Shown piece by piece: positions 5,467 to 64,000 of a stretch of DNA of 64,000 nt; the stretch's first letter is position 1, and the number at the start of each line of letters is the position of its first letter. The position numbers and the translations under genes were made by a program. The stretch is from a virus: the IMG/VR virus record IMGVR_UViG_3300032092_000004, positions 89,131 to 153,130 of that record, one strand, 5' to 3'. A model generated the notes under the pieces. The model was not told the DNA's origin. It saw nothing but the letters and a program-made list of their open reading frames with translations, and did no database searches.

Positions 5467-5572
5467 AACTAAATGTTTTTATTGGTTTATTTATCTATAA
5501 ATAGTATCTAAAACAAGTTTAATTCAGAATAAATAAAAATCAATTATTTTTATTTTGTTATATTTATAAAGT

Positions 5573-6778
5573 ATGAGAGACTTCATTAAAAATTTCTTAT
5601 TAGAACAAGATGAGAATCTTGTCACACTAACTCCTGATCAATATACAGAAACATTAGAGGATGTTGGAGGTATTGCAGCAAGAGTTGCAAATCTCAAACC
5701 TTATCGTGGTAAGGGTATTGTTATTAATGGTGGTTTAGATCTTAGAAAATTTAAAAACATTGGTCCTTTAACTGGCGTTGTTAGAGTTATGGGACGATTA
5801 GACATATCTAATACGAATATTTCAAATCTTGATGGAACTAAGGTAGATGGGTATGTTAGTAGTTGGGGTTCAACAATGCATACAAATAAATTAAAACAAG
5901 AAAGAAATAAAAAACTTTCAGAATTAGCCGATTATAGAGAAGATGATGAATGGAATATTGAAAATAATGATGATGAATCTGAAAGAACTGAAGCGTTATA
6001 TGAATTCTTAGTTGAAGAAGGTATTCCTACCTTATATGAAGACGACAATGGTGATGAAATAGAAGAAGATAAATATTTTATTTATCCAAATGGTACTGGA
6101 AATCACGGTATTGGAAAACAATACGAATGGTTAGGTGGTGGAACTTTACAACCTGACACATATGATGTTTATACTCAAGACGAGTTAGATGTTGCGGCTA
6201 AAAGATATGTTGAAAGATCGGTTGATGACATGGGTTATGATGCATTCTCAAGTTGGGTTTGGGATCAAGCGATTAATAAAGGAGAGTGGCAAAGTTGGTT
6301 AGATGATTTTTTTGAAGATATAGTTAGAGTTGATCCTGAACATTATGATATAGGACTTGAATTATCTAAAAATCAACAACATCAAGTTAATCAATTAACA
6401 AAAACTATAGAAAATCTAAATAATAGATTAGAAAAAGAGGAATTGTCTGACGAAGAATTCGAAAACATCGAAAGAAAAATTGAAGGTTTAGAAGAGACAA
6501 TAGAAGACATCAAAGAAGATCCACAAGGTGGTTATGATGAAAGTTCTATACAGAATGAAATCAATGATAGAGTTAATGAATATGTTGATGATATTGATGA
6601 GTTTATCAAACATTACGGTTATGAAAGTAGTTTTATAATGGATTTTGTTGATTTAAATGAAGTAACTGACATTGTAGTTAATAGTGATGGGTATGGTAAT
6701 TTATTAAACTCACATGATGGAGAAATGTTTGAAACAAAGGTAAATGACGATTGGTATTTTGTAATGAGAGCTGGTTAG
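5573..6778 (+). CDS. Hypothetical acidic protein with N-terminal tag and coiled coil
   Basis: 401-aa ORF; starts MRDFIKNFLLEQ; TATTTAT at 5561. Confidence 0.75.
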   Translation: MRDFIKNFLLEQDENLVTLTPDQYTETLEDVGGIAARVANLKPYRGKGIVINGGLDLRKFKNIGPLTGVVRVMGRLDISNTNISNLDGTKVDGYVSSWGSTMHTNKLKQERNKKLSELADYREDDEWNIENNDDESERTEALYEFLVEEGIPTLYEDDNGDEIEEDKYFIYPNGTGNHGIGKQYEWLGGGTLQPDTYDVYTQDELDVAAKRYVERSVDDMGYDAFSSWVWDQAINKGEWQSWLDDFFEDIVRVDPEHYDIGLELSKNQQHQVNQLTKTIENLNNRLEKEELSDEEFENIERKIEGLEETIEDIKEDPQGGYDESSIQNEINDRVNEYVDDIDEFIKHYGYESSFIMDFVDLNEVTDIVVNSDGYGNLLNSHDGEMFETKVNDDWYFVMRAG

Positions 6779-6818
6779 GTCTTTATTTGTTGAACAATAT
6801 ATCATATTTTTATTATGA

Positions 6819-7586
6819 ATGGCACGAAGAAAAAAAATAGAATTTTTGATGAACACCGATTGGATGTTTGAAAAACCTATTGATAGAGAATACAAAGAAT
6901 ACAAACTACTTTCTTATTTTCAAAAAATGGGAGATAAACTCGATAAGTTAGAGTTATACCCTGGTTTTATTGAATTATCATTACACTTAATGAATATCCA
7001 AGCTCTTATGAGGGATAAGAAAATTGTCTACACGGATAAAAAATTAAATACCGTAGACGATGAAATTATGGTGAAGGATCTGAAAGTAAAAGACGCTCCG
7101 ACCATGTCTATTGAAGAAAATGAAGAGTTTAGAAAAATTTTATCTTATTCAGCACCAAGAATCATGGAATACTTTAATGTAGCCAAGTCTGTTTGGACGA
7201 TAGTATTTGATTCTTTGGATATGAAAATCAAAAGAAACAAAAAAAATATCTTACACCCAAAAGGGTATTTCTTTTATACTGAAACAGAAAGTAAAAAAAC
7301 TTATGTGTGGGAGTACATTATAAAGAAAGAAACAAAAAGTAACCCACAAAGAATGGCGAATATAAATTTAATTTATTTCGATGAGATCGGAGAGTTGACC
7401 ATCCCAAATATAATATCTACATTTTCAACATACGAACCAAAAGACAAGAGAATGGGGCCAGTATTTCAAATGTCATCAAACGGAATTTTTCCTGTTAATG
7501 AAACATTATTACCCCTCTTCAAAAGAAGAATTGCGGGACTCATATCACAAACAAAAAACCAAGAAGAAAAACAAGAAACAGAATAA
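6819..7586 (+). CDS. Hypothetical protein
   Basis: 255-aa ORF. Confidence 0.75.
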   Translation: MARRKKIEFLMNTDWMFEKPIDREYKEYKLLSYFQKMGDKLDKLELYPGFIELSLHLMNIQALMRDKKIVYTDKKLNTVDDEIMVKDLKVKDAPTMSIEENEEFRKILSYSAPRIMEYFNVAKSVWTIVFDSLDMKIKRNKKNILHPKGYFFYTETESKKTYVWEYIIKKETKSNPQRMANINLIYFDEIGELTIPNIISTFSTYEPKDKRMGPVFQMSSNGIFPVNETLLPLFKRRIAGLISQTKNQEEKQETE

Positions 7587-7589
7587 GTT

Positions 7590-7772
7590 ATGGGATTTAA
7601 TAAGAGAATTTTAAAGAAAGAAAACATTTTAAAAAACCTCCCAAACCTTATGACCTATTTGGACGCCGATGCGATAATTTGTACCGACGATTTCTCACGC
7701 AAAGTTTATAGGATGTATAGTGAAGGTTTTACCGAAGAAGAAATAATAAATATAATAAATAAAATGAAATGA
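7590..7772 (+). CDS. Hypothetical protein
   Basis: 60-aa ORF, ATGA-coupled to next gene. Confidence 0.6.
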   Translation: MGFNKRILKKENILKNLPNLMTYLDADAIICTDDFSRKVYRMYSEGFTEEEIINIINKMK

Positions 7773-8456: not shown

Positions 8457-8458
8457 AA

Positions 8459-8608
8459 ATGGAAAAAGATTGGAACCCAAATGACTTTCAAGGAAGATCA
8501 AAAGATCAAATGGAAAGAAACTATAGAATTTTTGCAATTCTAATTACATTATCGTGGTTAGTTGGGACTGGACTTGTTTCATTCAAATTAATTAGTTACA
8601 TTTTTTAA
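8459..8608 (+). CDS. Small membrane protein (49 aa), not in ORF track
   Basis: MEKDWNPNDFQGRS... with one TM segment; fills gap between genes. Confidence 0.6.
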   Translation: MEKDWNPNDFQGRSKDQMERNYRIFAILITLSWLVGTGLVSFKLISYIF

Positions 8609-8619
8609 TCTATAATAAT

Positions 8620-9153: not shown

Positions 9154-10005
9154 ATGATAGAAACAGGAAAAATAATTAATGGAGATTGTATTGAGGTGAT
9201 GAAGACATTACCTGAAGGATCTGTGGATTTAATCGTAACGTCTCCACCCTACGGAGTTGGGATTGCTTACGATGTTCACGAAGATGACGTTGAGTTTAAC
9301 GAGTATGTGGAGTTTGCAAAGTCTTGGTTATCTGAGGCCTATCGACTATTAAAAGATGATGGAAGAATTGCTCTTAACATTCCTTACGAAATTAATAGAC
9401 AGAAAAAAGGTGGACGTATTTTCTTTGTGTCGGAGATGTGGCAAATCATGAAAGAAATTGGTTATGGTTTCTTTGGTATTGTTGATCTTGAAGAACAATC
9501 ACCACACAGAAGTAAAACCACTGCTTGGGGATCTTGGATGAGTCCAAGTTCACCGTACATTTATAACCCAAAAGAATGTGTCATTTTGGCATACAAAAAT
9601 AAACACATTAAAAAAATCAAAGGTCAACCACAATGGACTGGAGAATTAACTGAAATTGAAAATGAAGATGGTTCAAAAAGGAACAAAATGGTCTATGACG
9701 AGAATGATAAAAAAGAATTTATGGAACTTGTGTTTGGTCAGTGGAATTACTTTGCAGATACTAAATCACTCACCAAGGCAACTTTCTCGATGGACATACC
9801 AACTAAAGCGATTAAAATATTATCCTACAAAAACGATGTAGTTTTAGATCCATTTGCGGGTTCAGGAACTAGTTTAGTGGCCGCTGAGATATTGGATAGA
9901 AGATGGTTAGGAATTGAATTATCACCAAACTATTGTGACGTTGCAAGAGGGAGAGTTCAATCTTTTGTTGATGAAAAAACAAAAGTAAAAATTGAAAGTG
10001 AGTGA
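9154..10005 (+). CDS. Orphan DNA methyltransferase, N4-C/N6-A beta class
   Basis: TSPPY catalytic motif IV precedes DPFAGSGT SAM-binding motif I. Confidence 0.92.
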   Translation: MIETGKIINGDCIEVMKTLPEGSVDLIVTSPPYGVGIAYDVHEDDVEFNEYVEFAKSWLSEAYRLLKDDGRIALNIPYEINRQKKGGRIFFVSEMWQIMKEIGYGFFGIVDLEEQSPHRSKTTAWGSWMSPSSPYIYNPKECVILAYKNKHIKKIKGQPQWTGELTEIENEDGSKRNKMVYDENDKKEFMELVFGQWNYFADTKSLTKATFSMDIPTKAIKILSYKNDVVLDPFAGSGTSLVAAEILDRRWLGIELSPNYCDVARGRVQSFVDEKTKVKIESE

Positions 10006-10017
10006 TATTTATATCAT

Positions 10018-10206
10018 ATGAAAAATTATTTAATCAACGAAAAACAACTTAAGAGAATTCTTGAACAAGTTGAGGACGAAGAAAACGATCCTAAAGATGA
10101 GGAAACTAATGATGAAAATGTAAGTAGTGGTTTTTTTGATGATATCACAAAAAAACCTATAGATAGTAGTGATCCTTTAAAGATTTTTTTTGATTCTTTA
10201 AATTAA
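10018..10206 (+). CDS. Small acidic tagged protein
   Basis: MKNYLINEKQLKRILEQ; TATTTAT at 10006. Confidence 0.65.
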   Translation: MKNYLINEKQLKRILEQVEDEENDPKDEETNDENVSSGFFDDITKKPIDSSDPLKIFFDSLN

Positions 10207-11852: not shown

Positions 11853-12815
11853 ATGAAAAATAAATTTATTTTAACAGAGGAAGAATCTAAAAGAATTCTT
11901 TCTTTACACAAACAAAAAATCCAAGAAGAAAGAGAAAATATAGAAGAATATTCAGATCAAGGTCAGTCAGCAACTAGAATTGGAGGATCATTAGCTGCTG
12001 GCGCTGGAGTAGGTGCTGGTGTAGGTACAATCATTGCACCAGGTGTTGGAACAGTTGTTGGTGCAATTATTGGTGCTGGTGTTGGGGCATTAACAGGTTG
12101 GGCAACAACAGGAGGTGGATATTATGAAAGAGTTGCTAAAGCATTCAAATTTTGTCGTGATAATAGAAAATATATGGGTAAACCTGTAAACTCACCTGAA
12201 AAACTCCAAGACATTGCAGACTTTATAAGATCTGCAGTTACTGGTTTAGGTACTGATGAAGTTTTAATTGCAAAAAATTTAAGAAAATTAAAAACAATTC
12301 CTGATTTTTGTGCTTTAAGTAAAATTTATAATGAAAGATTTACTGAAACTTTATTCGATGCTTTGGACGGTGATATAGATCAAGATAATGAATGGAGAGA
12401 TTATGTTTGGTTACCAATTTCTGAATTGGCAAAAAATACAAAAAAAGTTAGCGAAGATAAGTTAAAAGAAAACGCTAAAAAATGCGGTTGGGGAACTGAC
12501 ATTAATGGTTATAGAAATTCAGGATGGCAATGTCCTAAAGGAGGAAAACCAACACCAAATCCTATTCCTAACCCTAATCCAAACCCTAATCCAAACCCTA
12601 ACCCAAATCCTAATCCAAACCCAAGAAGAAAAAGATATTATTTCAATTACCAAGATGCGTTAAACGCATTGAATAAAAAAGGATGTCCTACCGGAGGTGG
12701 TGGTGAAGAAGGTAAAAAAGAAGATGGTTTTGCCGATGATTGGAGAGTACCTCAAGCAGATCAAAAAGTTGATCCTGTAGTTTCATCTGACGATTTTTCA
12801 AATTGGTCTAAATAA
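11853..12815 (+). CDS. Tagged protein with glycine-zipper hydrophobic hairpin, annexin-like repeat and (PN)n linker
   Basis: ATG 11853 after TATTTAT; GAGVGAGVG...; SAVTGLGTDEVLI; PNPNPN tract. Confidence 0.7.
   Translation: MKNKFILTEEESKRILSLHKQKIQEERENIEEYSDQGQSATRIGGSLAAGAGVGAGVGTIIAPGVGTVVGAIIGAGVGALTGWATTGGGYYERVAKAFKFCRDNRKYMGKPVNSPEKLQDIADFIRSAVTGLGTDEVLIAKNLRKLKTIPDFCALSKIYNERFTETLFDALDGDIDQDNEWRDYVWLPISELAKNTKKVSEDKLKENAKKCGWGTDINGYRNSGWQCPKGGKPTPNPIPNPNPNPNPNPNPNPNPNPRRKRYYFNYQDALNALNKKGCPTGGGGEEGKKEDGFADDWRVPQADQKVDPVVSSDDFSNWSK
12548..12623 (+). repeat. Coding (Pro-Asn)n hexanucleotide repeat
   Basis: CCWAAY units with synonymous variation. Confidence 0.85.
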
Positions 12816-12831: not shown

Positions 12832-13056
12832 ATGAGCAAGATTAAATTAACAGAAAGTCAATACAACAAATTAAAAAATAATATTGTTGAATCCGCATTA
12901 ATTACTGAAGCATCGAATACAAGAGAAGAGGTGATGACAGTTCAAAAAGCATTAAATAAATGCTTTAAAGCTGGTTTAGCTGAAGACGGAATTTGTGGAA
13001 AGAATACAAAATCTGCAATTGAGAGATACTTAGGAATTCCGGTTATGGAAGTTTAA
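12832..13056 (+). CDS. Small tagged protein with peptidoglycan-binding domain
   Basis: VQKALN...LAEDGICGKNTKSAI resembles PG_binding_1. Confidence 0.65.
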   Translation: MSKIKLTESQYNKLKNNIVESALITEASNTREEVMTVQKALNKCFKAGLAEDGICGKNTKSAIERYLGIPVMEV

Positions 13057-14219: not shown

Positions 14220-14231
14220 ATATTTATTGTT

Positions 14232-15479
14232 ATGAGAAATATTGTTATTACCGAAAGTCAATTAAAATTAATTACAGAAGCTTTAGGCGTTCCTGATTAT
14301 ATTTTAGATGCGGCTGAGATGTTATATGATGTTGTTGAAAAAGACATCAAATCAATAGATAGTGTTGAAGATGAATATGAATTCGATGGTGAGATTGAAT
14401 TTGAGTTAGGTGATAAGAAAAAAATCAAAATTGATTCTTATGAATTAAAAGTAGAAATAGAAAAAGTAGAAGGTCACGGAGATGGAGTGATAGACATCAT
14501 CTCAATGGGTATGTCTGGTGGGTTTGGATTTAACAGAGATGTTTATATGAAAGAAACTCAACCATCGACAACTTTGGAATTAACAATAACATTTGCGGTT
14601 GGCGAAAATTGGGAACCTGAACAACTAATTAAAAAAATGGAGGAAGAAAGAGATGAATATGTTGCATCTTTGGCTCATGAAATTAAACACAAATACGACA
14701 AACAATCAAAAAAGTTTGGTTTAATCGGTCCTGATGCTACATATCAAGCAACACAAAGAAGGGGTAATTTTGGAATACCAGTATTAGATAGAGTTTTCTT
14801 TAGGTATATGTATTATATCCACGGTATTGAAAACCTCGTTAGACCCGTTGAGGTTGCATCTTCAATGAGAAGTAAAAACGTTACAAAATCACAATTTTTG
14901 GATTTCTTACAAAACAATAGAGTATTCAGAGAGTTGGTGGAAATTAAAAAATTCACATTTGAGGATTTTATTAATGAGTTAAAAGAAAATGAAGATAGGT
15001 TAGATGCTCTTATTGAACATATAGGTGAAGATCCATCTGAAATGACTTTAGATGAGAAAATTAATAGAGTATTGGAAGTTGCTTACATTGATTTAGTTAA
15101 TAATAGAATGGAGATTTTTGTTATAATGACACAACATCATATGGATGATATGATAAAATTTGGGGGACAACTTGGGATGTTACCGCCAAATTTAGATGAT
15201 GAGGTAAAAAAATTAGAAAAAACAGATGAGATTAGACGGAAGTTTTTATCTTATGTGACGAAATATGAAAAGAACCCAACTAAATTCTTTGAAGATGAAA
15301 TCGAGAACTTTCAATACATTGCAAACAAAATGTTAAAGAAAATATCAAAACTATATTCTATGGCAAAAGACGACGAACAAGTTAGTGAATCAATTCTAAA
15401 TTGGGATCTTCACCAACAAATCATGGAAAAAAAATACGGTACAAGAAAAATAGAAACCGAATACAAGTTTAAGAGATAA
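14232..15479 (+). CDS. Tagged protein with HExxH motif (possible zincin)
   Basis: MRNIVITESQLKLITEA; LAHEIKHKY. Confidence 0.6.
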   Translation: MRNIVITESQLKLITEALGVPDYILDAAEMLYDVVEKDIKSIDSVEDEYEFDGEIEFELGDKKKIKIDSYELKVEIEKVEGHGDGVIDIISMGMSGGFGFNRDVYMKETQPSTTLELTITFAVGENWEPEQLIKKMEEERDEYVASLAHEIKHKYDKQSKKFGLIGPDATYQATQRRGNFGIPVLDRVFFRYMYYIHGIENLVRPVEVASSMRSKNVTKSQFLDFLQNNRVFRELVEIKKFTFEDFINELKENEDRLDALIEHIGEDPSEMTLDEKINRVLEVAYIDLVNNRMEIFVIMTQHHMDDMIKFGGQLGMLPPNLDDEVKKLEKTDEIRRKFLSYVTKYEKNPTKFFEDEIENFQYIANKMLKKISKLYSMAKDDEQVSESILNWDLHQQIMEKKYGTRKIETEYKFKR

Positions 15480-31298: not shown

Positions 31299-32024
31299 AT
31301 GAATTACGGAAAAGAGTTTAGAAGTTTCGCAAAAAGCGAAGGAATTAGTTCACTGGCGTTGGACCAGTTTGAAGCATCACTAACCCCATACATTTTGGAG
31401 GAAAGAGAATTAAGAGCAACACAAATCGATATCTTCTCGAGATTGATGCGTGACCGTATCTTGTGGTTGTCAGGGCCTGTCGATCAAAGAATGTCTGACA
31501 TTGTACAAGCACAATTATTGTTTTTGGATTCAGTTGAGAAGAAAGACATCACACTTTATATCAATAGTCCTGGTGGTTCTGTGATGTGTGGTCTTGGAAT
31601 TGTAGATTTGATGAACTACGTAAGTTCAGATATTGTAACCACAAACTTGGGTATGTGTGCATCTATGGGTTCAGTTCTTGTGTCATCAGGAACAAAAGGA
31701 AAAAGATCATCTTTGATACACGCAAAAGTAATGACTCACCAAGTAAGTCACGGAACACGAGGAAACATCCAAGATACTCGTATTGATCAAATGGAAGGTG
31801 AAAAATACAATTACATCTTATTTAAAATCTTAGCCGAAAATTGTGGTAGAACATTTCAGGAGGTATTAGATTTTTCGTCAAGAGATAGATGGTACAATTC
31901 AGAAGAAGCAAAAGAGTTCGGACTTATTGATGATATAATCGGAGCGGATAAAAACAAATCAATTACAAACTACTTGGATGGTTTTGATGATTATTACAAG
32001 AAAGAAGTATTGGGTGTGAAGTAA
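31299..32024 (+). CDS. clpP: ATP-dependent Clp protease proteolytic subunit
   Basis: DIFSRL, YINSPGGSV, CASMGS (Ser), MTHQ (His), RDRW (Asp). Confidence 0.94.
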   Translation: MNYGKEFRSFAKSEGISSLALDQFEASLTPYILEERELRATQIDIFSRLMRDRILWLSGPVDQRMSDIVQAQLLFLDSVEKKDITLYINSPGGSVMCGLGIVDLMNYVSSDIVTTNLGMCASMGSVLVSSGTKGKRSSLIHAKVMTHQVSHGTRGNIQDTRIDQMEGEKYNYILFKILAENCGRTFQEVLDFSSRDRWYNSEEAKEFGLIDDIIGADKNKSITNYLDGFDDYYKKEVLGVK

Positions 32025-45776: not shown

Positions 45777-46625
45777 ATGGATAAATTAATTAGAGAAGAT
45801 ATTGAAAGAATAAAAAGTCTGATGCTTGAGTCGGAAGGTAAGAATGAGTACAATTTTTGTGATAGGTTTTCAGGTAACAAACAAAAAATGTATGTGTGTA
45901 GTAAAATTGGTTCATTAAAAGGACTTCTTTCAAAAAGTAACGGTCTTGATTTAAGAAATGTTATTGATAAAAAAATTAAAGATTTAGAAACAGAAATTCC
46001 TCAAGTTTTACAAGATAAATTTATTGATTGTGCGATTTTTTTGGAATCACTTGGAAAAATAACTGAGGAAGAAAAAAATAATTTTATAGAAAATAAAGTA
46101 AAAAATAACAAATTGGTTTACTTAAATGGTGAATGGCAACCAATAAATAAGTTGAACACAAATTATTTTGATTTGGCAGAATTATTAACTGAACTGATCT
46201 ATAAAAATAAAAACAATATTACATTCCAAGCAATTATCAAAGATCCTAAAACCACTTTAATGAGGATGAAATCAGAGTTAGAGAAAATGATTGAAGATTA
46301 TTTTGACGATCCTATGATGTTATTTGATTACACCAAAAACATCCAACGAACAACTCAACAGGGTGAAAGTGCCGAAAGAAGAGTTAAAGAATATTTACAA
46401 GACAAAGGATTCAAAGTTGAATATGAAGGTGGAAATGGTGATTTAATTGACATGGTATTTGGAACCGATCTTATTATGTCTCATCCTGATTTTGGAGTTA
46501 AAACAATCCAAGTTAAGGCGAATGAAAAGGCTTATGATCAAGATTACAAATATGTTGATTGGGTGATAATTGCAAACCCTTTCACTATTTATGATAATAA
46601 AACAAAAGAGAAAGTTCAATTATGA
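45777..46625 (+). CDS. Tagged protein with C-terminal PD-(D/E)xK nuclease-like domain
   Basis: GESAE...D..FGTDL...IQVK. Confidence 0.55.
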   Translation: MDKLIREDIERIKSLMLESEGKNEYNFCDRFSGNKQKMYVCSKIGSLKGLLSKSNGLDLRNVIDKKIKDLETEIPQVLQDKFIDCAIFLESLGKITEEEKNNFIENKVKNNKLVYLNGEWQPINKLNTNYFDLAELLTELIYKNKNNITFQAIIKDPKTTLMRMKSELEKMIEDYFDDPMMLFDYTKNIQRTTQQGESAERRVKEYLQDKGFKVEYEGGNGDLIDMVFGTDLIMSHPDFGVKTIQVKANEKAYDQDYKYVDWVIIANPFTIYDNKTKEKVQL

Positions 46626-47220: not shown

Positions 47221-47529
47221 ATGAAAATACTAATATCAGAAAAACAAGCCGATAGAATATTCAACGACAAAATTGAATGTGAAAAGTGTGAACACTCGTG
47301 GAAAAAAGAAAAAAATGGTCCACAACCTTTTCTTTGCCACGATTGTGGGTGGGACCAAAAGAAACAAAAGTACGATAAAGAAAACCTATTCAAGTTTTGG
47401 AAAAATAAATTATCCAAAGAACCAATTGACGAAAAATGGTCTGAAAAGTATAAAAGGTCAATAAATTGTAATAATCCAAAAGGGTTTAGCCAGAAGGCTC
47501 ATTGTCAGGGTAGGAAAAAAAGAGATTGA
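47221..47529 (+). CDS. Tagged small protein with zinc ribbon and C-terminal CNNPKGFSQKAHC motif
   Basis: CEKC...CHDC; EKWSEKYKRSINCNNPKGFSQKAHC. Confidence 0.65.
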   Translation: MKILISEKQADRIFNDKIECEKCEHSWKKEKNGPQPFLCHDCGWDQKKQKYDKENLFKFWKNKLSKEPIDEKWSEKYKRSINCNNPKGFSQKAHCQGRKKRD

Positions 47530-52042: not shown

Positions 52043-52063
52043 AGTTCTTTTATATTTATTAAT

Positions 52064-52975
52064 ATGAAAGTATCGATTACAGAAGATCAACTCAAAGTTG
52101 TACAATCAAAAGTGATTTATGAACAAATCCTTGACGACCTTGTTTTCAAACTATCTTTAATCACAGAAGATGGTAAGACTAAACCTGATATGGAATGGGA
52201 TTTTGAACCTATCAAAAAAGAAATTGATTTATCCAAGTTATGGGTTAAAACTAAAGAAGATGCTATAAAATATATTGAAAAAGTTAAAGATAAAATTGAA
52301 AATCTTCCTTCTGACTTAAAAAAAAGAATTGTAAAATATATTGCCTATTCCTTATTAGGTTTATTAAGTTTAAAACAAATTGAAAAATATTTAGAACCTC
52401 CATTACAAAGTGCGGTAGAAACTGAAAAAGAATTCATCAAAAAGGTAATACCACCAAGAATAAGAAAATCATCAGAAGGTTTAATTAATCATTTAAAGTA
52501 CGAAGAAGGGTCTATTAGACATAAAGGACAACCAAATTTAGTTGCTTATGATCTTGGTGATGGCGCTTATACCATTGGTTATGGACATGCTATATTTCCT
52601 GATGAACAAGAGGGATTTGATTTTTTACCAAGATACTCAAAGATAGTTCCAGGTAGAACAACAATTACAAAAGAAGATGCCGAAACATTATTGAAAGATG
52701 ATATGAGAGAAGCTGAAAGCATCGTTAATCGAATTTTGGATCAATGGGAAGAAAAAGGAATTAAACCACCAATTACACAAGGAATGTATGATGCAATGGT
52801 CTCTATGTCATTCAATATGGGAAGAGGTATAAGAACTTCAGATTTTATCCAAGCGGTTAAACGAGGTGATTTTGATTTGGCAAGAAAATTAATTTCAACA
52901 ACAAGTGAAAACTTGTTTGATGACTTTCCTGGTCTTGAATCAAGAAGGAAAAAAGAATCGGAAATGTTTATATGA
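52064..52975 (+). CDS. Tagged protein with C-terminal GH24 (T4-type) lysozyme
   Basis: YEEG...AYDLGDG..TIGYGH, DAMVSMSFNMG, GLESRRKKE. Confidence 0.82.
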   Translation: MKVSITEDQLKVVQSKVIYEQILDDLVFKLSLITEDGKTKPDMEWDFEPIKKEIDLSKLWVKTKEDAIKYIEKVKDKIENLPSDLKKRIVKYIAYSLLGLLSLKQIEKYLEPPLQSAVETEKEFIKKVIPPRIRKSSEGLINHLKYEEGSIRHKGQPNLVAYDLGDGAYTIGYGHAIFPDEQEGFDFLPRYSKIVPGRTTITKEDAETLLKDDMREAESIVNRILDQWEEKGIKPPITQGMYDAMVSMSFNMGRGIRTSDFIQAVKRGDFDLARKLISTTSENLFDDFPGLESRRKKESEMFI

Positions 52976-57133: not shown

Positions 57134-57157
57134 CTATTACTAAAGTATTTATATGTA

Positions 57158-58111
57158 ATGAAAAATCTTGTTAGATCAATCCTTAATGAAGTTTACCAAC
57201 AACAAAACAAACCTGACTTAATTAAAGAATGTACAATTGCTGCGGTAAGATTGGATGACACCGTAGTTTTAGCAAAAAACAGAGATAGAGGTTACAAGGC
57301 TAGAGTTGAAATTATTCATGAGATTGTGAAAGATGTTGAAATGGTTTATTGGAGAGATATTGATACTGATTGGAGTGAGGGAATGAATGAATTTGGTATT
57401 GGTATTGTAAATTCTAGTTTGATGGTTGCCCAAGATGAGAAAGAAGGTAAAGGGGTTGAAAAAGAAAGAAAGATTGATGATAAAACTAAGGATAAGACCG
57501 AAAAGAAAAGATTTGCCGCTGATGGAGGTAAAATAAGAAAGGCTTTAACTTATAAAACTTTACCTAAAGTAATTAAATCTATAATTTCTTACAGAGGTGA
57601 AGATAAAAAAGATGTGGGACTCAAAGGAGAAACAATAGTCTCAAATAACGAAAATATTTATATAGTTGAGATGACCGCTAAACATTCTCCAATAATTAAA
57701 AAATTAAAAACTGACTCTAAAATTGTTGTAAGAACAAACCATGGAATTTATCAAAAGAGTGCTGGGTATACTCATGGTAGAAAAAGAAAATCTTCTGTAA
57801 CTAGAATGGAATTGGCAAAAAAACACTTAGAGGGTGTTAAAAAAGACATAGATGTGATTGATGCGATGAAAAAGAAATACAAGAAAGATCCATTTTTAAA
57901 TCCATATAGAACAAAGAACATGTATCATATGCAAACAACAGGTCAAATAATGATGAATCTTGACAAAAAACTTGTTGTTGTTAGAATGGATAATGATATG
58001 GGAGAGTTTGTTGGTATCCAAACAAAACTACCAAAAGATTACGAACCAAAAATTAAAATAAGAATAGAGGGTGAAAAAACCCATGATAAAGGCAAAAAAT
58101 TACCAACGTAG
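57158..58111 (+). CDS. Tagged Ntn-hydrolase-like protein (Cys nucleophile at residue 25)
   Basis: CTIAA...LAKNRD, EGMNEFGI, RTNH. Confidence 0.7.
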   Translation: MKNLVRSILNEVYQQQNKPDLIKECTIAAVRLDDTVVLAKNRDRGYKARVEIIHEIVKDVEMVYWRDIDTDWSEGMNEFGIGIVNSSLMVAQDEKEGKGVEKERKIDDKTKDKTEKKRFAADGGKIRKALTYKTLPKVIKSIISYRGEDKKDVGLKGETIVSNNENIYIVEMTAKHSPIIKKLKTDSKIVVRTNHGIYQKSAGYTHGRKRKSSVTRMELAKKHLEGVKKDIDVIDAMKKKYKKDPFLNPYRTKNMYHMQTTGQIMMNLDKKLVVVRMDNDMGEFVGIQTKLPKDYEPKIKIRIEGEKTHDKGKKLPT

Positions 58112-59796
58112 TGAAAAATTTAATTAAAAGAATATTAAAAGAAGAAACAAAATCACTTTTGACAGAAGGTGGTATTCGTGATATCAAGAATCTTGCTAAA
58201 AGATATAAAATGGCTAAGATCTACTTTCACCTTGATTTAGATGGTGTTACAACTGCTTTGGCAATGAAACATTATTTAGAAAGAAATGGTATTAAAGTGG
58301 TTGAGGCCGAACCAATTCAATACGGAGCAAAAGAATTCGCAGTTAAAAAACCTGAAGGCGAAGGTGAAATTATGCCAGTTCTTGTGGATTTTGCTCATGG
58401 TAAACCAATGTTTGTTATTCATACAGATCACCACGATACACAAGCCGGAGTTGAAGGAGATACGTCAACAAGCTTCAAGTCTGCAAGATCAAACGTCGAA
58501 ACAATCTCACAAACTGTATCTCCATCTGAGATCTTTACTCCTGAAGATGTTGAAACAATTTCAATCGTTGACTCCGCTGATTTTGCAAAACACGACATCA
58601 AACCAAGAGACGTTATTAATTACCTATTCCAAATAGATAGAACCAAAGGTTTTAAAGAAAACAAAAGAAAAATGGGTCTTGTTGCTAATAAACTATTATT
58701 GGCATTTAAGAATAAACCTGGTTTCTTAAGTGATATTGTATTAAATGCTCAACCATCTTTACTTAGTATCTTGATGAACATCAAAGATCAGATGCAAAAG
58801 AAAGGATATGCGACTTTAGATAAGTTAGAACAAAATAAAGAAGCCTACATTGAGTCAAGAAAGAAAGAAGGTGCGGTCCAATACTCTGATGGAGTTATTA
58901 GTCAATATGGTTTTGGTTCTACGATGAAACCAGGATCTTATGATCGTTATACACCATTCGAAAATTATCCTGAAGCTGATTTCTTAGTAACAGGAATGCA
59001 TTTAGGGATGGTTCAAGCATCTTGTAACCCATACAAGAAAGATAGAGCACTTAAAGGTGTTAACTTAGGTGAAGTTAAAGATGAGGTTTTAAATAAAATG
59101 TCATCAGAATTAGAAAATATAAAAGTAACTTTTGGTGATCTTAAAAGAGTTGGTGAACAAGAGGCTGAGTTTGGTTCTGTTGGATTCACATTGAAAGACT
59201 TCATGGCAATTTATGGTAATGCTCCTTCATATAAACTTGATGGTAGTAAAAACACTTTAGAAATTATTGGAAACATTTCTCAAACCTTATATAGAAAACT
59301 AAGTGATAGACAAAGAGATGTGTTAGATAAAATAACAGTCAATGGTTTAGATGTGATTAAAGCAAACTCAGGTGGTCACAAATGTATTACTAATATTTCA
59401 GGAATAAATTTCTTATTGAGAGATAGAAAAGCTCGAACCAACACTGAGGTTGAAACCATTTCTGCTGAACTACAACCAATTGCCAGTTATGAAGGAAGTA
59501 ATGACTTTGTTAAAGATATCAAAAGTAAGTTATTAAGATTTGGTAGTATTTCTGACAAACAAAAAGATGCCGCAATGAGACAAATTAATAAAGAAGGTAC
59601 TTGGTCTAAAGGTGAAGTTGAGAGACCTAAAAAAACATTTGTTGATTTGGTCAAACAAATACAAGAAGAATTTGTTTCAATTTTAAAAGATAAAATAAAA
59701 TTGTCAGGCGATGAAAGATCCGAACCTGAATTAGAAATAGAACTTGAAGAGCAATTGAGAAGAATTACCAAAAAACAATTATCTTCAAGAATCTAA
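58111..59796 (+). CDS. Tagged DHH-family phosphoesterase
   Basis: HLDLDG, LVDFA, TDHH, late GGH. Confidence 0.72.
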   Translation: MKNLIKRILKEETKSLLTEGGIRDIKNLAKRYKMAKIYFHLDLDGVTTALAMKHYLERNGIKVVEAEPIQYGAKEFAVKKPEGEGEIMPVLVDFAHGKPMFVIHTDHHDTQAGVEGDTSTSFKSARSNVETISQTVSPSEIFTPEDVETISIVDSADFAKHDIKPRDVINYLFQIDRTKGFKENKRKMGLVANKLLLAFKNKPGFLSDIVLNAQPSLLSILMNIKDQMQKKGYATLDKLEQNKEAYIESRKKEGAVQYSDGVISQYGFGSTMKPGSYDRYTPFENYPEADFLVTGMHLGMVQASCNPYKKDRALKGVNLGEVKDEVLNKMSSELENIKVTFGDLKRVGEQEAEFGSVGFTLKDFMAIYGNAPSYKLDGSKNTLEIIGNISQTLYRKLSDRQRDVLDKITVNGLDVIKANSGGHKCITNISGINFLLRDRKARTNTEVETISAELQPIASYEGSNDFVKDIKSKLLRFGSISDKQKDAAMRQINKEGTWSKGEVERPKKTFVDLVKQIQEEFVSILKDKIKLSGDERSEPELEIELEEQLRRITKKQLSSRI

Positions 59797-59798
59797 TT

Positions 59799-60080
59799 CT
59801 AACCCATACTCTTTAGGACCATCTCCAAAGTGTAGATGGAATCTTTATCTTGTTTAGTCTTAACCTGTTTAGACTTCAGATATTCCAAACTTTGTAATAC
59901 CTCTTCCTTTTTAGATTTAGGATTTTGAGTAGAGTTATTACTCTGAGTTTTTTTAACCACTGAAAATGATTTTTTTTGAGGAACTGATTCATTACCTAAA
60001 AATTCTCTAACTATTTCTAAAGACTTGTCAGGGTTCCAAGTGAACATATTTACCAAAATGTAAGCGAATATCTTTTTCAT
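59799..60080 (-). CDS. Hypothetical protein
   Basis: 93-aa ORF; TATCTTTG 4 nt upstream on the minus strand. Confidence 0.6.
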   Translation of the reverse strand: MKKIFAYILVNMFTWNPDKSLEIVREFLGNESVPQKKSFSVVKKTQSNNSTQNPKSKKEEVLQSLEYLKSKQVKTKQDKDSIYTLEMVLKSMG

Positions 60081-60119
60081 ACTACAAAGATAATGAAAAT
60101 AAATGATATTTATAAAAAT

Positions 60120-61526
60120 ATGAAAAATCTGATTAGAAACATTTTGAAAGAAAAGGTGTCAACAAAATCAAAACAATTGATTTACGAGACCGAGAGAGAG
60201 TTAGATGAGAGGGGTAGACCAAGATTGTATTCTGATGAGGAAATTTTAAGTCGTGCTTGTCAATATACAAATCAAAGAGATTTTGAAAAAGGAAATGATA
60301 AAAATTATTTTTATTTAGCTAAGAATAGAAAATTATTACCCACAATTAGATTACAATGTAATTACGTACCACTTGGAAATGCTTACAGTAGGATGTTATA
60401 TATGTATATATGGGAAAAAAATGTAAGTGCTGTTTATTTTGGACTCACTTGTGATGAAGAGAGAAGATATGAAGAACATACACGTTTAGAACAACAAATT
60501 TTAAATAATGCAGACGTTAAACCAAGTTGTAAAGTCGGATCCAATTCTGCGGTTAAAGAGTTTATTAAAAAAAATGGGATTCATGATAGATATGTAATGA
60601 TTTCTGATGGTTATATTGATGCAGTTCAAGCGGCACTTGCCGAAAGGTGTTTAATTGACCACTTCAAAAATGATGATGAGTGGAAAGGTAAGATAGAAGT
60701 TGTTAACAAAAGTAAGGGTGGTGAATTGGGAGGAAGATGTCCCGCGAATGCAAGACGAATGGCCCAAGATGTAAAATTAATTATGGATAATCAAATAAAT
60801 ACACCTGAGGAATTTCAATTAAATTATCCTGTTGAATATGAATATTGGTCAAGAGACAAAAACAGACAAAGAATAATAAATCAAGGGTTGAAAAAAAGAT
60901 TTTTTTCAGATGCCCCATATTCGAAAGAAGAAATACTGAATATAGTTTCAAATTACGACAATTTGGATGAATTTAAAAATGAAAACCGAAGAGCCTTTCT
61001 TTCTGCGAAGAGAAATAAAATGATAGAAATTCTGTACCCTGAGGATAATGTTTACTTCAACCCAAACACAAATAAAACTTATGAATCATTGATTAGTTTA
61101 AATAAAGATTTAAATAAAAATTTCAAAGATTTATATAATGATTTTTTAAGAGGTCAAGGCGAATTGGATTATGGAATTATAACAAAGAAAAAAAACGAAA
61201 TTAACGAAAATATTTTAAGAAGAATTATAAAAGAAGAAACCGAAGAGATTAACCAAAAGGTCATGAACTTCCTTCTGAGAAGACATGAGATCAATGAGAT
61301 TAATATTGATGATCAAATTAAATTTAAAGAAGTATACTTCAAGGTAGGAGATGACTATTATGGGATATCAATGTGGGATAGTAAAAAAAGACAAGTAAGA
61401 CTTATTTTGAATATGTTAGAAGAAAACAATGTTATTGAACCAATTGATAACTTCTCAAACGAAAACGATCCATACAGACAAAAAGTTGTTAGAACAATTA
61501 AAAAGTTTTTATCTGAAATAATGTAA
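60120..61526 (+). CDS. Tagged GIY-YIG-like nuclease fused to a second tagged domain
   Basis: MLYMY...VYFGLT....RRYEEH...E...N..KGG; internal INENILRRIIKEE. Confidence 0.6.
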   Translation: MKNLIRNILKEKVSTKSKQLIYETERELDERGRPRLYSDEEILSRACQYTNQRDFEKGNDKNYFYLAKNRKLLPTIRLQCNYVPLGNAYSRMLYMYIWEKNVSAVYFGLTCDEERRYEEHTRLEQQILNNADVKPSCKVGSNSAVKEFIKKNGIHDRYVMISDGYIDAVQAALAERCLIDHFKNDDEWKGKIEVVNKSKGGELGGRCPANARRMAQDVKLIMDNQINTPEEFQLNYPVEYEYWSRDKNRQRIINQGLKKRFFSDAPYSKEEILNIVSNYDNLDEFKNENRRAFLSAKRNKMIEILYPEDNVYFNPNTNKTYESLISLNKDLNKNFKDLYNDFLRGQGELDYGIITKKKNEINENILRRIIKEETEEINQKVMNFLLRRHEINEINIDDQIKFKEVYFKVGDDYYGISMWDSKKRQVRLILNMLEENNVIEPIDNFSNENDPYRQKVVRTIKKFLSEIM

Positions 61527-61963
61527 TGAAAGAGTTGATTAGACACATATTGAAAGAAGAAACTGAGGTTTCAGATCCAAATACAAAAGGAATAGATCTT
61601 GCAATTAAGTTTCTTAAAAAATCATATCCTTACATTATTGGGTGGGAAATTAATGATGAGCGTACATATACAATATACCTTAATATTATCTGTGATATTG
61701 AAAAACTAAAAGAGTTTTATAATAGTGATTTAAAGAATTATTATTTAAGACACAAAGATGATATATATAAAGATATTTTAGCATATCCACATTCAGTTTT
61801 AAAAATAAGTGAAACTATGGATCCAGATGAAAAGTACAAAGAGTATAGTGAAATGAAACAGGAATTAAACGATATATATCAAATGCTTCCTGAACATTTA
61901 ATTATAAATGATAGACATAACGAACCCAAAGAATTAGATCCTGACAAATTTATATATAGATGA
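61526..61963 (+). CDS. Tagged hypothetical protein
   Basis: MKELIRHILKEE. Confidence 0.7.
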   Translation: MKELIRHILKEETEVSDPNTKGIDLAIKFLKKSYPYIIGWEINDERTYTIYLNIICDIEKLKEFYNSDLKNYYLRHKDDIYKDILAYPHSVLKISETMDPDEKYKEYSEMKQELNDIYQMLPEHLIINDRHNEPKELDPDKFIYR

Positions 61964-62394
61964 AAAAGTTGATTAAACATATATTAAAAGAAGACGAGGG
62001 AAACAATCTTGAACAAAGATTTAGAAACTCAATGCAAAAACTCCAATATATTTTTGAAAGTCAAGTTTCATCTCATATTGACTCTGTCGAAATAAGTGAA
62101 ATTGAATTTGACCCTAAATATACTGAAATCCAAGCAAAACTTACGGTTAAATCATATTATGAAGACCATGATTTTGGTTCACTTGCTAAACACATTGATA
62201 GATTAGAAGATGAAGTTTATAAAATTCAAGGAAAATACACATTCACAGAAAACGGTGGTTTGATTAAAAGAGGTCCCGACCATGATTGGATTATGAGTTG
62301 TATACCAATTGGTATGAAATGGCAAGCTGGTGGTGAAGAATCATTTCTGTTAATTTTAGAATTTTGGATAAGACAAGAGGAATACGATGCGTGA
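61960..62394 (+). CDS. Tagged hypothetical protein
   Basis: MKKLIKHILKED. Confidence 0.7.
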   Translation: MKKLIKHILKEDEGNNLEQRFRNSMQKLQYIFESQVSSHIDSVEISEIEFDPKYTEIQAKLTVKSYYEDHDFGSLAKHIDRLEDEVYKIQGKYTFTENGGLIKRGPDHDWIMSCIPIGMKWQAGGEESFLLILEFWIRQEEYDA

Positions 62395-63026
62395 TGAGAA
62401 ATTTAATTAAATTGATATTAGAAGATGAGGTTAGTAGAAAATATGCTAAACCTACACCAAAATTAGAACAAGTTGTTTATAGATGGTTAAACAACTATTT
62501 TGATGGTGTGCAAATGTATTATAAAAAATCTTATGAATCAACACATAGTTTTGATTTTTGTAAAAACGGAAGAGAAATATTGGATGTTGTTTTATATTTT
62601 GGTAATGATGATGACGACAATAAAAAAACTGAAGAAATGAGTTTTAATAGGGGTTTAATGAGAGTCCCAAAAAATGTATTTGATGATTTAACCACAGATC
62701 TTCCTATGAGAGTAAGTTATTTAAGATACCTTCTTGAAGAATGGTTCGATGACACTTACTTAGGTGAAATTCAAAAAAAGATGGGTAGAAATGATATTTA
62801 CATTTCCGAACTTTATATAACTAATTACGACGGTGATATTTGTTTTCCACCGATAACAAAACCTGATGATGTAACTGAGGAGGAAATGATAGAAGATATT
62901 CTTAAAGCGGGAAAATATAAAATGAAGGATATATTGTGGTGGGAAGAGAGATCGCCAGGATGGATTGAACAAACTTATTTAGAACAACTTAATGGTGCTG
63001 AATACAGAAGATTAAAAGGACAATGA
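62394..63026 (+). CDS. Tagged hypothetical protein (paralog of next gene)
   Basis: MRNLIKLILEDE; EEWFDDTYLGEIQ.KMGRNDIYISE shared. Confidence 0.75.
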   Translation: MRNLIKLILEDEVSRKYAKPTPKLEQVVYRWLNNYFDGVQMYYKKSYESTHSFDFCKNGREILDVVLYFGNDDDDNKKTEEMSFNRGLMRVPKNVFDDLTTDLPMRVSYLRYLLEEWFDDTYLGEIQKKMGRNDIYISELYITNYDGDICFPPITKPDDVTEEEMIEDILKAGKYKMKDILWWEERSPGWIEQTYLEQLNGAEYRRLKGQ

Positions 63027-63664
63027 GAGAACTGATTAGACATATCTTAAAAGAAGAGGTTAATAAAAAATACAAAAAACCTACACCAAAGGTAGAACAA
63101 CTTGTTTATAGTTGGTTAAACAAGTATTTTGATGGGGCTACAATGTATCATGACAAATCGTGGGAAACAAGACATGATTTTGAATGGTGTAATTATGGAA
63201 AAGAAATAATGAGTTTTATATTATTTTTTGAAGATAATAATGATGTTTATGACGATAAAAGAAAAACTGAAGAAAGAGATTTTGGTTCAGGTTCAATTTA
63301 TATCCCAAATGATATATTTAAAGAGTTGATGTCCGATATTCCTGTAAGAGTAAGTTACTTAAAATACCTTTTTGAAGAATGGTTTGACGACACTTATTTA
63401 GGCGAAATTCAAAGTAAAATGGGTAGAAATGACATCTATATTTCTGAATTTAATATAAATGATAAAGATGCTCAAACTTGTGTTCCACCAATAACAAAAT
63501 CTGAAGATGTAAGTCAAGATGATATCATAGAACTTGTTCTTAAAACCACACTGTTTAAAAGAGATGATTTATTAAGACGAGAAGAAGAGGAACCAGGGTT
63601 TATAGAGAAAATTTATTTAAATAAACTTCGTGCTGCAGAAATAGACAGATTAAGAGAAGAGTAA
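63023..63664 (+). CDS. Tagged hypothetical protein (tandem paralog)
   Basis: MRELIRHILKEE; collinear with 62394..63026. Confidence 0.75.
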   Translation: MRELIRHILKEEVNKKYKKPTPKVEQLVYSWLNKYFDGATMYHDKSWETRHDFEWCNYGKEIMSFILFFEDNNDVYDDKRKTEERDFGSGSIYIPNDIFKELMSDIPVRVSYLKYLFEEWFDDTYLGEIQSKMGRNDIYISEFNINDKDAQTCVPPITKSEDVSQDDIIELVLKTTLFKRDDLLRREEEEPGFIEKIYLNKLRAAEIDRLREE

Positions 63665-64000
63665 TGAGAGAACTAATCAGACATATCTTGAAAGAAAATA
63701 GACTCCAACAAGAGTTGAAACAAGTTATCAAAGATGGTAATATTTTTGACGCTGCGGACTTGGTTGGTGGAATCCAACCACTCAAAAGAATATTCAAAGA
63801 CGATCCTGAAATGAGTTCTTTATTTGATAAACTAACAGGGAGGATTATTTTTGATTATTATGTGAATAAAGAACATATAGAATTTCCTTTAGATTATGAA
63901 ATAATTGGTAGAAAGAGTAATAATCATAAGACTAATCATTGGCCTGAAATAAACGTTCTTTATGATGAAAATAAATTAACACCCGAAGAAAATGATACTT
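63664..64000 (+). CDS. Tagged hypothetical protein, 3'-truncated by window edge
   Basis: MRELIRHILKENRLQQ...; open to the end of the window. Confidence 0.7.
   Translation, partial: MRELIRHILKENRLQQELKQVIKDGNIFDAADLVGGIQPLKRIFKDDPEMSSLFDKLTGRIIFDYYVNKEHIEFPLDYEIIGRKSNNHKTNHWPEINVLYDENKLTPEENDT

Follow-up and report, generated by a model that had tools for sequence, protein, structure and literature searches.

Interchangeable N-terminal leaders on unrelated proteins of an uncultured T4-related giant phage, most likely marking capsid cargo

Leader-tagged genes of the window

The analysed window is a stretch of 64,000 nucleotides (positions 89,131 to 153,130) of IMG/VR record IMGVR_UViG_3300032092_000004, a viral contig of 153 kb that is 49% complete, i.e. 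about half a genome. Genes are named by their first nucleotide in the window. The leader-bearing genes are collected in Table 1. For all 16 listed N-termini, translation from the start coordinates gave the peptides quoted in the first-pass annotation. Its estimate of about 18 tagged proteins was exceeded, 20 leader-bearing ORFs being detected by pattern in the contig and 3 more having been missed by the patterns.

Table 1. Leader-tagged genes of the window, with further tagged genes of the contig in the last row.
Coordinates	Strand	Product	Leader and (I/L)-x-Glu sites	Other features
5573..6778	+	401-aa acidic ORFan	Type 1, residues 1-11; L-L-E at 9-11	Late-type motif ends 4 nt before ATG
10018..10206	+	62-aa ORF	Hybrid: begins as type 2, continues with K-R-I-L-E up to residue 16	Late-type motif ends 4 nt before ATG
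11853..12815	+	320-aa ORF	F-I-L-T-E-E-E-S-K-R-I-L class; L-T-E at 7-9	True start an internal Met, downstream of motif
12832..13056	+	74-aa ORF	Type 2; last residues of (I/L)-x-E sites: 8, 20, 26	Weak PG_binding_1 match (Pfam)
14232..15479	+	415-aa ORF	Type 2; I-T-E at 6-8 and 14-16	H-E-I-K-H at residue 149
45777..46625	+	282-aa ORF	Class C, I-E-R-I-K-S-L-M-L-E	In same-strand run behind motif-bearing gene 45043
47221..47529	+	102-aa Cys-rich ORF	Type 2; I-S-E at 5-7	
52064..52975	+	303-aa ORF	Type 2; last residues of I-x-E sites: 7, 20, 35	Phage_lysozyme domain at residues 159-298 (Pfam 1.3e-17)
57158..58111	+	317-aa predicted Cys-Ntn hydrolase precursor	Type 1, residues 1-11; I-K-E at 22-24	Disordered linker; Cys25
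58111..59796	+	561-aa DHH-type phosphoesterase-like protein	Type 1, residues 1-11; second site L-T-E at 17-19	GTG start; second site just before conserved G-G-I-R start of presumed mature part
60120..61526	+	468-aa ORFan	Type 1	Late-type motif ends 5 nt before ATG
61526..61963	+	145-aa ORFan	Type 1	
61960..62394	+	144-aa ORFan	Type 1	
62394..63026	+	210-aa ORF	Type 1; I-L-E at 8-10	Paralogue of 63023
63023..63664	+	213-aa ORF	Type 1	Orthologues in 23 viral contigs
63664..64000	+	ORF running off contig end	Type 1	Orthologues of 92-1057 aa, only first ~50 residues common
Contig positions 7096, 81172, 82557, 83307, 83684, 84088, 84639				Further tagged genes upstream of the window

The type-1 pattern, M-[KR]-x-[LF]-[IV]-[KR]-x-[IF]-L-x-[EDQ], matched nine times in the 153-kb contig and was strictly N-terminal, lying directly on the start codon in 9/9 cases; a looser form, applied to a six-frame reading, added one match only, by chance. 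The type-2 pattern gave 10 matches in six frames, eight of them at ORF residues 3-6. Both patterns together tag 20 of 185 ORFs, far above the frequency in shuffled N-termini, where 2000 shuffles of residues 2-25 yielded a mean of 0.145 and a maximum of 2 tagged ORFs. At internal Met sites, taken as a control, 2 of 709 matched.

The earlier description of the passengers as unrelated holds within the contig, since after removal of the first 25 residues only the pair 62394/63023 is alike (BLASTP E<0.01). The passengers are mostly acidic, mostly small ORFans without an autoprocessing fold, and some contain Gly-rich hydrophobic segments. Among the domains originally assigned to them, the lysozyme of 52064, the Cys-Ntn hydrolase of 57158, the DHH motifs of 58111 (D-L-D-G, D-H-H at residue 106 and G-G-H at residue 421) and the H-E-x-x-H of 14232 were recovered, peptidoglycan binding was represented by a weak match, and the nuclease and annexin-like assignments were not confirmed. 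The family set of motifs being DxD, D, DHH and GGGH, the 58111 product agrees with it in part, and its match to Pfam DHH reached an E of 0.0079 only, below the cut-off of that family, and an Atlas lead for 14232 pointed to SprT-like Zn peptidases only. The 11853 product gave weak PHROG matches to tape-measure and endolysin segments, and that of 5573 nothing significant in Pfam or PHROG.

The motif T-A-T-T-T-A-T-[AT] precedes tagged genes or the same-strand runs to which they belong, and is also found before sheath, tube, baseplate and fibre genes; it may represent a late promoter. Many tagged genes are translationally coupled and have no motif of their own. They stand in variable arrays, the content of which differs between relatives.

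Architecture of the leaders

Two related leader types had been proposed. Both exist, but types 2 and 1 proved to be the halves of one leader of 22 residues, of which relatives carry the complete form, and other classes occur besides. At least five interchangeable classes can be distinguished, namely the full form, with an extra conserved half R-L-T-E-S-D-L, the two halves (types 2 and 1), I-x-R-I-K-x-M-M-G and N-R-F-K-x-L-L-E-S; the class F-I-L-T-E-E-E-S-K-R-I-L was seen at 11853. Gene 45777, at first placed in type 2, had to be moved to a third class, I-x-R-I-K-x-L-M.

Beyond Glu11 of type 1 and Glu15 of type 2 the information content immediately drops to background. The leaders are highly charged, with only four hydrophobic positions, and exchanges of Lys and Arg or of Ile, Leu and Val leave the pattern intact. 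Because five synonymous codons are in use for Leu4 and the upstream DNA differs among the tagged genes, it is the peptide that is conserved. Orthologues carry leaders of different classes, and this swapping lends indirect support to the portability of the tag. In 17 of the best 150 global matches the leader is present at least twice in one chain; no Met precedes the internal copies, so the motif is not an N-terminal address alone.

Putative cleavage junctions and the predicted Cys-Ntn hydrolase

The AF2 model of the 57158 product (pLDDT 80.5, pTM 0.82) shows the leader as a helix (residues 2-16), followed by disorder at 15-23 and a strand that begins at residue 26. Its best Foldseek matches (E 5e-9 to 1e-6) were isopenicillin-N acyltransferase (2x1c, 2x1d), bile salt hydrolases (BSH), penicillin V acylase and NAAA, and according to this model the protein is a Cys-Ntn hydrolase with a predicted four-layer Ntn fold. 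Against Pfam AAT (PF03417) the protein itself gave nothing at E<=0.01; a match to this family was obtained for 27 of 38 homologues, with a best E of 2.5e-7. With AAT/C45, BSH, penicillin V acylase and NAAA it has in common the fold, a Cys where the first core strand begins and, further on, an N-R-D motif. The known members, however, free the Cys themselves, whereas in the 57158 family the Cys always comes after a head-protease motif and a swappable phage leader.

In an Ntn hydrolase the nucleophile must be residue 1. The invariant nucleophile of 57158, Cys25, lies at the start of strand 26-31 and would be exposed by cleavage as the first mature residue. The residue preceding the catalytic Cys (P1) is Glu in 113 of 113 homologues, while P3 is occupied by Ile (77), Leu (29), Val (6) or Met (1) and P2 by 13 different residues; Ile/Leu at P3 combined with a free P2 is the rule of the T4 protease. 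The propeptides, 11-35 aa long, are drawn from at least four leader classes. This junction, with its invariant Glu and swappable propeptide, is the strongest evidence for reading the leaders as propeptides.

The DHH-like family of 58111 has Glu in 12/12 and Leu or Ile in 12/12 members before a conserved S-G-I-R. An MCP-adjacent protein with 3774 homologues always displays h-x-E↓A-T-S-T behind leaders of 7-14 aa, resembling the L-R-E↓S-T-T-T of T4 gp24 (arrows, known or presumed cut sites). In three independent passenger families the conserved part starts right after an invariant Glu, with chiefly Ile or Leu at P3.

Head genes of the relatives and spread of the leader

The contig, being 49% complete, contains no head genes, neither a Peptidase_S77 protease nor a capsid gene. 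Two near-complete relatives of 273 and 292 kb, which share 126 and 122 of 184 proteins with the contig, encode Portal_T4, Gp23 and a Peptidase_S77 prohead protease (88 and 81 bits), the gp21-like enzyme that the first-pass annotation had suggested looking for. The lineage is thus T4-type, and since the contig itself is without head genes, its protease is presumed from these relatives. Peptidase_S77 was also found in 6 of 7 further leader-bearing IMG/VR records (>=90% complete). Tagged ORFs number 43 of 339 and 43 of 357 in the relatives, as against 2-3 after shuffling, and in both genomes the two genes flanking the capsid gene bear a leader. Alignment of the capsid proteins places L-I-N-E↓A of both relatives and I-V-S-E↓A of Flavobacterium phage immuto at the T4 gp23 cut site, F-L-T-E↓A; the capsid propeptide of the relatives would be cut at L-I-N-E↓A. 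About one eighth of the predicted genes of this uncultured T4-related giant phage begin with one of a few interchangeable short leaders.

A profile search with the full leader found 9,368 protein clusters worldwide in public data, and no match to the full leader, here taken as 23 residues, was obtained in 50,697 cultured phage records; the leader-bearing lineage is uncultured. No paper describing this leader system was found in the literature.

Discussion

In T4, a capsid-targeting sequence (CTS) of 10 residues is carried by otherwise unrelated internal proteins, with targeting assigned to residues 4 and 7 and processing to residues 8 and 10 (PMC9026906, PMC3012670). It is found on IPI, IPII and IPIII, with related propeptides on Alt and gp24, and is removed by gp21 (Mullaney and Black 1996, reviewed in PMC9026906, PMC3012670). 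The first 10 codons of ipII and ipIII are identical in the T4 record. The present leaders are alike in being short N-terminal peptides (7-20 residues) common to unrelated proteins, with an M-K start, hydrophobic positions about one helical turn apart and an (L/I)-x-Glu end; the lineage has homologues of the S77 protease, gp23 and gp20, and the tagged genes lie in variable loci. Unlike T4, with its handful of tagged genes, there are about 43 per genome here, the cargo is mostly acidic, the full leader is 22 residues long and may be repeated internally, and at least five classes are swapped between orthologues. No sequence homology to the T4 CTS, M-K-T-Y-Q-E-F-I-A-E, is detectable, ten residues being too short for a test, and what the two have in common is the pattern.

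The protease that cuts the head and ejection propeptides of phiKZ, 201phi2-1 and SPN3US at (A/S/G)-x-Glu is related to that of T4 (PMC5694885, PMC10052503). These are likewise jumbo phages with dozens of head proteins and a protease cutting after Glu, and their paralogues can have identical N-terminal stretches with cut sites; however, their propeptides are mostly longer than 100 residues, no portable tag extends across unrelated families, and P3 is Ala, Ser or Gly instead of Ile or Leu. In bacterial microcompartment encapsulation peptides and encapsulin cargo-loading peptides, a short amphipathic helix with a linker sends diverse enzymes into a protein shell. There, in contrast, the shell proteins are unrelated, no maturation protease removes the peptides, and in encapsulins the tag is usually located at the C-terminus.

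The unrelated proteins that bear these leaders most likely enter the capsid and are shortened inside it, a process known from T4 that would here involve far more proteins, and it seems probable that the leaders are T4-CTS-like propeptides which are removed by the head protease and mark capsid cargo. The leader, a presumed short amphipathic N-terminal helix with a flexible linker, would bind to the prohead scaffolding core and bring the unrelated protein into it; the T4-type (Peptidase_S77) prohead protease would then remove the leader inside the prohead by a cut after (I/L)-x-Glu, and the mature cargo would remain inside the capsid, probably to exit together with the DNA. In the case of 57158, the cut would expose the catalytic N-terminal Cys, so that activation would be delayed until the enzyme is in the capsid. 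The original idea of a portable tag cut by a gp21-like protease after (I/L)-x-Glu fits every test run, from the S77 protease, portal and gp23 of the relatives and the capsid site to the three junction families, the leader swapping and the late-type motif; its two-type scheme was incomplete, the contig has neither protease nor capsid gene, several of the proposed passenger domains were not recovered, and most passengers are acidic. Several observations count against this best reading: about 43 cargo genes per genome are many, the acidic cargo differs from the basic internal proteins of T4, leaders are repeated inside single chains, the invariant Glu could serve autoprocessing as Ntn hydrolases self-process, and the ClpP of the phage might also recognise N-terminal signals.

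Ntn hydrolases of the AAT, BSH and NAAA kind are self-processing. The leaders might accordingly be inhibitory or folding pro-segments only, cut autocatalytically or by another cytoplasmic Glu-specific protease and unconnected with capsid targeting, a view favoured by the match of the 57158 fold to this kind and by recognisable enzymes being only some of the passengers. This is unlikely, as most passengers are small ORFans without an autoprocessing fold, the (I/L)-x-Glu rule recurs in the DHH-like and MCP-adjacent families and in the capsid protein, no other Glu-specific protease was seen, and Ile/Leu at P3 with a free P2 fits the T4 protease. Equally improbable is a docking helix for some other destination, be it a ClpP/Clp ATPase degron or adaptor signal, a membrane-binding helix or another assembly tag. 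The phage does encode a genuine ClpP (Pfam 1.7e-53), one relative a ClpA/B-type ATPase, and the Gly-rich hydrophobic segments of some passengers and the internal leader copies would suit such a role. Clp, however, degrades processively and would leave no precise N-terminal Cys; docking does not explain the sharp loss of conservation at Glu with Ile/Leu at P3, and it agrees poorly with a highly charged leader that offers four hydrophobic positions only and stands on genes adjoining the capsid gene.

That the shared start is a feature of DNA or RNA, either a mobile promoter-plus-start cassette serving as a recombination handle or a translation-initiation signal with the peptide as a by-product, would agree with the variable arrays of unlike content and with the AT-rich motif abutting many starts. 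It is nevertheless very unlikely in view of the five synonymous Leu4 codons, the amino acid exchanges that keep the pattern, the unconserved upstream DNA, the many coupled tagged genes without a motif of their own and the internal in-frame leader copies. Least probable of all is a recognition sequence for a modifying enzyme in the manner of RiPP leaders: one leader common to many unrelated proteins is indeed RiPP logic, but no Radical_SAM domain (PF04055) occurs in the contig or the two near-complete relatives, against 14/14 positive control genomes, and no candidate partner enzyme was seen adjoining the tagged genes.

Building on the propeptide reading, a broader proposal, to which we give an even chance, is that an entire clade of jumbo phages related to T4 fills its capsids with at least one tenth of the proteome by means of a leader code that is modular and has several classes. 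Besides its role in the head, the prohead protease would convert pro-enzymes, so that cargo is armed only within the shell, where the Ntn hydrolase would acquire its catalytic N-terminal Cys; it would also cut multi-leader polyproteins into several cargos. The capsid would then serve to deliver proteins in large number, under an address label that can be read. If the propeptide reading is true, the head-borne proteins of an uncultured giant phage, which are probably delivered to its host, could be recognised from sequence alone; they would number about 43 in each genome and comprise thousands of families globally, nearly all without an assigned function. The tagged set would then be a catalogue in which to seek proteins that act early in taking over the host or that counter its defences, the leader classes could be used directly as tags when foreign proteins are to be loaded into phage heads, and the Ntn hydrolase would provide a clear example of an enzyme activated by a capsid maturation protease in the role of convertase.

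Leader peptides and gene content of the contig

Translation recovered all 16 of the N-termini quoted in the first-pass annotation, each in the position assigned to it. The type-1 pattern (M-[KR]-x-[LF]-[IV]-[KR]-x-[IF]-L-x-[EDQ]) occurs nine times in the contig and always on a start codon, and eight of the ten six-frame matches to the type-2 pattern (as in M-K-I-L-I-S-E-K-Q) lie at residues 3–6 of an ORF. Either pattern is carried by 20 of the 185 ORFs; shuffling of residues 2–25, the comparison proposed in the annotation, gave an expectation of 0.145 tagged ORFs and a maximum of 2 (2000 shuffles). Internal methionines matched the patterns at 2 of 709 sites. Three further genes listed in the annotation carry variant leaders outside the patterns, and gene 45777, assigned there to type 2, has instead a leader of an I-x-R-I-K class (class C).

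The passengers were described as unrelated, and within the contig this holds: after removal of the first 25 residues, 62394 and 63023 form the sole similar pair among the tagged proteins. Conservation is at the level of the peptide, since Leu4 is encoded by five synonymous codons among the tagged genes, exchanges of Lys/Arg and Ile/Leu/Val leave the pattern intact, and the DNA upstream of the tagged genes differs. The codon diversity of the leader does not fit a cassette acting at the DNA or RNA level, an idea that was therefore rejected for the contig. Information content falls to background directly past Glu11 (type 1) and Glu15 (type 2), and the passengers are mostly acidic. Pfam and PHROGs gave almost no matches to the tagged proteins, and no Pfam model covering the leader was found. 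For gene 14232, an Atlas look-up returned sub-threshold leads only, to SprT-like Zn peptidases. The family of gene 63664 (P0035–P0120) shares the leader and about 50 N-terminal residues at lengths of 92–1057 aa: the head of these proteins is constant, their body hypervariable. Midway through the type-1 array there is a conserved 93-aa gene on the opposite strand, which relatives have in the same place (loci L014 and L023).

The window forms the right-hand 64 kb of an IMG/VR virus contig (153,130 bp, GC content about 31%, 49% complete according to CheckV), whose left part has genes for a tail sheath, a tube, a baseplate hub and fibre-like proteins of very large size. Searched by megablast, the tag cluster had no match among cultured phages, and there was no resemblance to a cultured phage at the DNA level. 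The phage ClpP is genuine (Pfam 1.7e-53) and, as the annotation had noted, lacks the leader; the thyA gene named there was not located. An ORF with an S-P-P-Y motif looks like a DNA methyltransferase.

Locations of the features discussed
Feature	Location	Strand
Octamer near ATG	window 5561–5572
Octamer near ATG	window 10006–10017
Octamer near ATG	window 14221–14231
Octamer near ATG	window 52053–52063
Octamer near ATG	window 57146–57157
Octamer near ATG	window 60107–60119
Octamer near ATG	many structural genes upstream of the window
ORF with S-P-P-Y motif	window 9154–10005	+
ClpP	window 31299–32024	+
Conserved 93-aa gene	window 59799–60080	-
Gene 63664	window 63664–64000
Orthologues of 63664	L023:10639–13668
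Sigma-70-family factor	contig 69500–70300 (L004:15270–16070)
MCP-adjacent protein	G2 L042:10229–10948	-
ClpA/B-type ATPase	G2 L043:5090–7135
Class-C-like N-termini	immuto NC_055915, ORFs at 111675 and 25061

Relatives and global breadth of the leader

Orthologues of gene 63023 are present on 23 IMG/VR contigs, among them two near-complete genomes, G1 (272,576 bp, 93% complete) and G2 (291,867 bp, 99% complete), which have in common with the contig 126 (69% mean identity) and 122 (57%) of 184 ORFs, respectively. Each genome contains 43 leader ORFs among about 350, compared with 2–3 after shuffling. At least eight unrelated ORFs in each start with a full-length, 22-residue leader (M-K-R-I-V-R-L-T-E, S-D-L-A-R-I-V, R-R-V-I-N-E), in which M1, L7, E9 and E22 are invariant and beyond whose E22 similarity is absent. 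Its first half corresponds to type 2 and its second half to type 1; the two types of the annotation are halves of one leader. Other ORFs carry leaders of additional classes (M-N-L-Q-E-x-I-R-R-I-L-K-E, I-x-R-I-K-x-M-M-G-L, N-R-F-K-x-L-L-E-S and E-E-E-K-x-R-I-L-x-L-H). The 276 leader ORFs of the three genomes and 23 loci fall into 79 passenger families, five of which use more than one leader class.

When a profile of the full leader was searched against 1.84 billion proteins, 9,368 clusters (50% identity) were obtained at E ≤ 0.001. Of the best 150 matches, 129 have a leader that begins no later than residue 12, and 17 chains of these 150 contain two or more copies, the internal ones without a preceding Met. 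P0362, P0364, P0366, P0369 and P0392 each hold two or three in-frame copies of the full leader; possibly such chains are polyproteins that are processed into more than one cargo. The 23-residue leader had no tblastn match among cultured phages. A profile of the 45-residue N-terminus returned only orthologues of the input from a set of 5.8 billion proteins and is therefore uninformative on relatives sharing the tag alone. No published description of the leader system was found in the literature.

Predicted cleavage junctions

The clearest junction is that of gene 57158, with 787 homologues, of which 27 of 38 sampled match Pfam AAT (peptidase C45 family). Neither 57158 (single sequence and profile) nor 58111 gave a meaningful match to PDB sequences, and a fold search was therefore needed. 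In the AF2 model of 57158 (pLDDT 80.5, pTM 0.82) the leader forms a helix at residues 2–16, residues 15–23 are disordered and the first core strand begins at residue 26; its closest structural neighbours all belong to the Cys-Ntn hydrolases (isopenicillin-N acyltransferase, bile salt hydrolases, penicillin V acylase and NAAA). In these enzymes the nucleophile must be residue 1 of the mature chain. Glu directly precedes the invariant Cys in all 113 homologues with a propeptide, P3 being Ile in 77, Leu in 29, Val in 6 and Met in 1, and P2 any of 13 different residues. The propeptides, of 11–35 residues, belong to type 1, type 2, M-N-L-Q-E, R-I-x-x-M-G or another class. Since the classes are mixed in this way before a fixed Glu-Cys junction, the homologues indicate that one leader class can replace another, and the agent of their removal, whatever it is, is predicted to cut after (I/L)-x-Glu.

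In the DHH-like protein 58111, (L/I)-x-Glu ends all 12 distinct propeptides and is followed by a conserved S-G-I-R; its orthologue in G2, 61% identical over 522 residues, has a type-2 start in place of type 1. A third case is a very conserved, basic protein of 239 aa with four Cys encoded next to the capsid gene of G2, whose 3774 homologues all contain h-x-E|A-T-S-T behind leaders of 7–14 residues, resembling L-R-E|S-T-T-T of T4 gp24. Its AF2 model was unusable (pLDDT 41). A second leader gene borders the capsid gene on its other side.

Head genes of T4 type

The gp21-like protease called for by the annotation was absent from the contig, on which no capsid or protease gene was found at 49% completeness; both G1 and G2, however, encode Peptidase_S77 (scores of 81 and 88 bits, both exceeding the cut-off), along with Gp23 (1e-64) and Portal_T4 (6e-74), in the gene order of T4. 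Genomic context of the leader was sampled from IMG/VR loci, and among further leader-bearing records at least 90% complete S77 was present in six of seven. In alignments with T4 gp23, the counterpart of its known cut site F-L-T-E|A-E-I-G-G reads F-L-I-N-E|A in G1 and H-L-I-N-E|A in G2. It reads I-V-S-E|A in Flavobacterium phage immuto, whose capsid protein (40% identity) is the closest one from a cultured phage. Since these sites coincide, a protease preference for (I/L/V)-x-Glu appears to have been kept in the lineage. The T4 record has the first ten codons common to ipII and ipIII. Glu-directed cleavage by T4-related proteases and capsid-targeting sequences (CTS) of 10–20 residues are established (PMC5694885, PMC9026906, PMC3012670).

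Upstream motif and proposed timing of expression

The sheath, tube, baseplate and fibre genes have the octamer T-A-T-T-T-A-T-[AT] 3–40 nt ahead of them. Of the 23 tagged genes 9 are preceded by it, compared with 23 of the 162 others (Fisher p = 0.007); the remaining tagged genes lie downstream in same-strand runs headed by the octamer. The octamer, or a variant differing at one base, stands ahead of the MCP-adjacent leader gene of G2 and of the genes for its protease and scaffold. By analogy with T-A-T-A-A-A-T-A of T4, the octamer is a putative late promoter. It often ends just 3–8 nt ahead of the ATG, which suggests that late mRNAs are leaderless or nearly so, unless the octamer is not a -10 element. 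Also on the contig is the gene for a factor of the sigma-70 family that comprises regions 1.2, 2 and 4 (Pfam 2e-16, 7e-15).

Interpretation of the leaders

A radical-SAM enzyme as partner of the leaders was found in neither the contig nor G1 nor G2, and that idea was rejected. Less probably, the leader is a Clp degron: the ClpP is genuine and G2 encodes a two-ring ClpA/B-type Clp ATPase, but a degron leaves unexplained a precise cut ahead of the catalytic Cys. The 57158 Ntn precursor may process itself; this does not account for the same junction rule in other families. The best-supported reading, and in our judgement a fairly probable one, is that of the annotation, namely that the leaders are T4-CTS-like propeptides cut by the head protease and marking capsid cargo: the (I/L)-x-Glu junctions and the T4-type head genes of the relatives favour it, while the contig itself is without head genes and the passengers are mostly acidic.

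A candidate experimental model is phage immuto, a cultured phage of T4 type that encodes an S77 protease. It lacks the type-2 coding pattern, but R-M-Q-x-L-A-G-I-I-T-E, similar to the class-C leaders, occurs in the N-terminal parts of two of its ORFs. The leader system is a candidate for a new and greatly expanded form of T4 capsid targeting.
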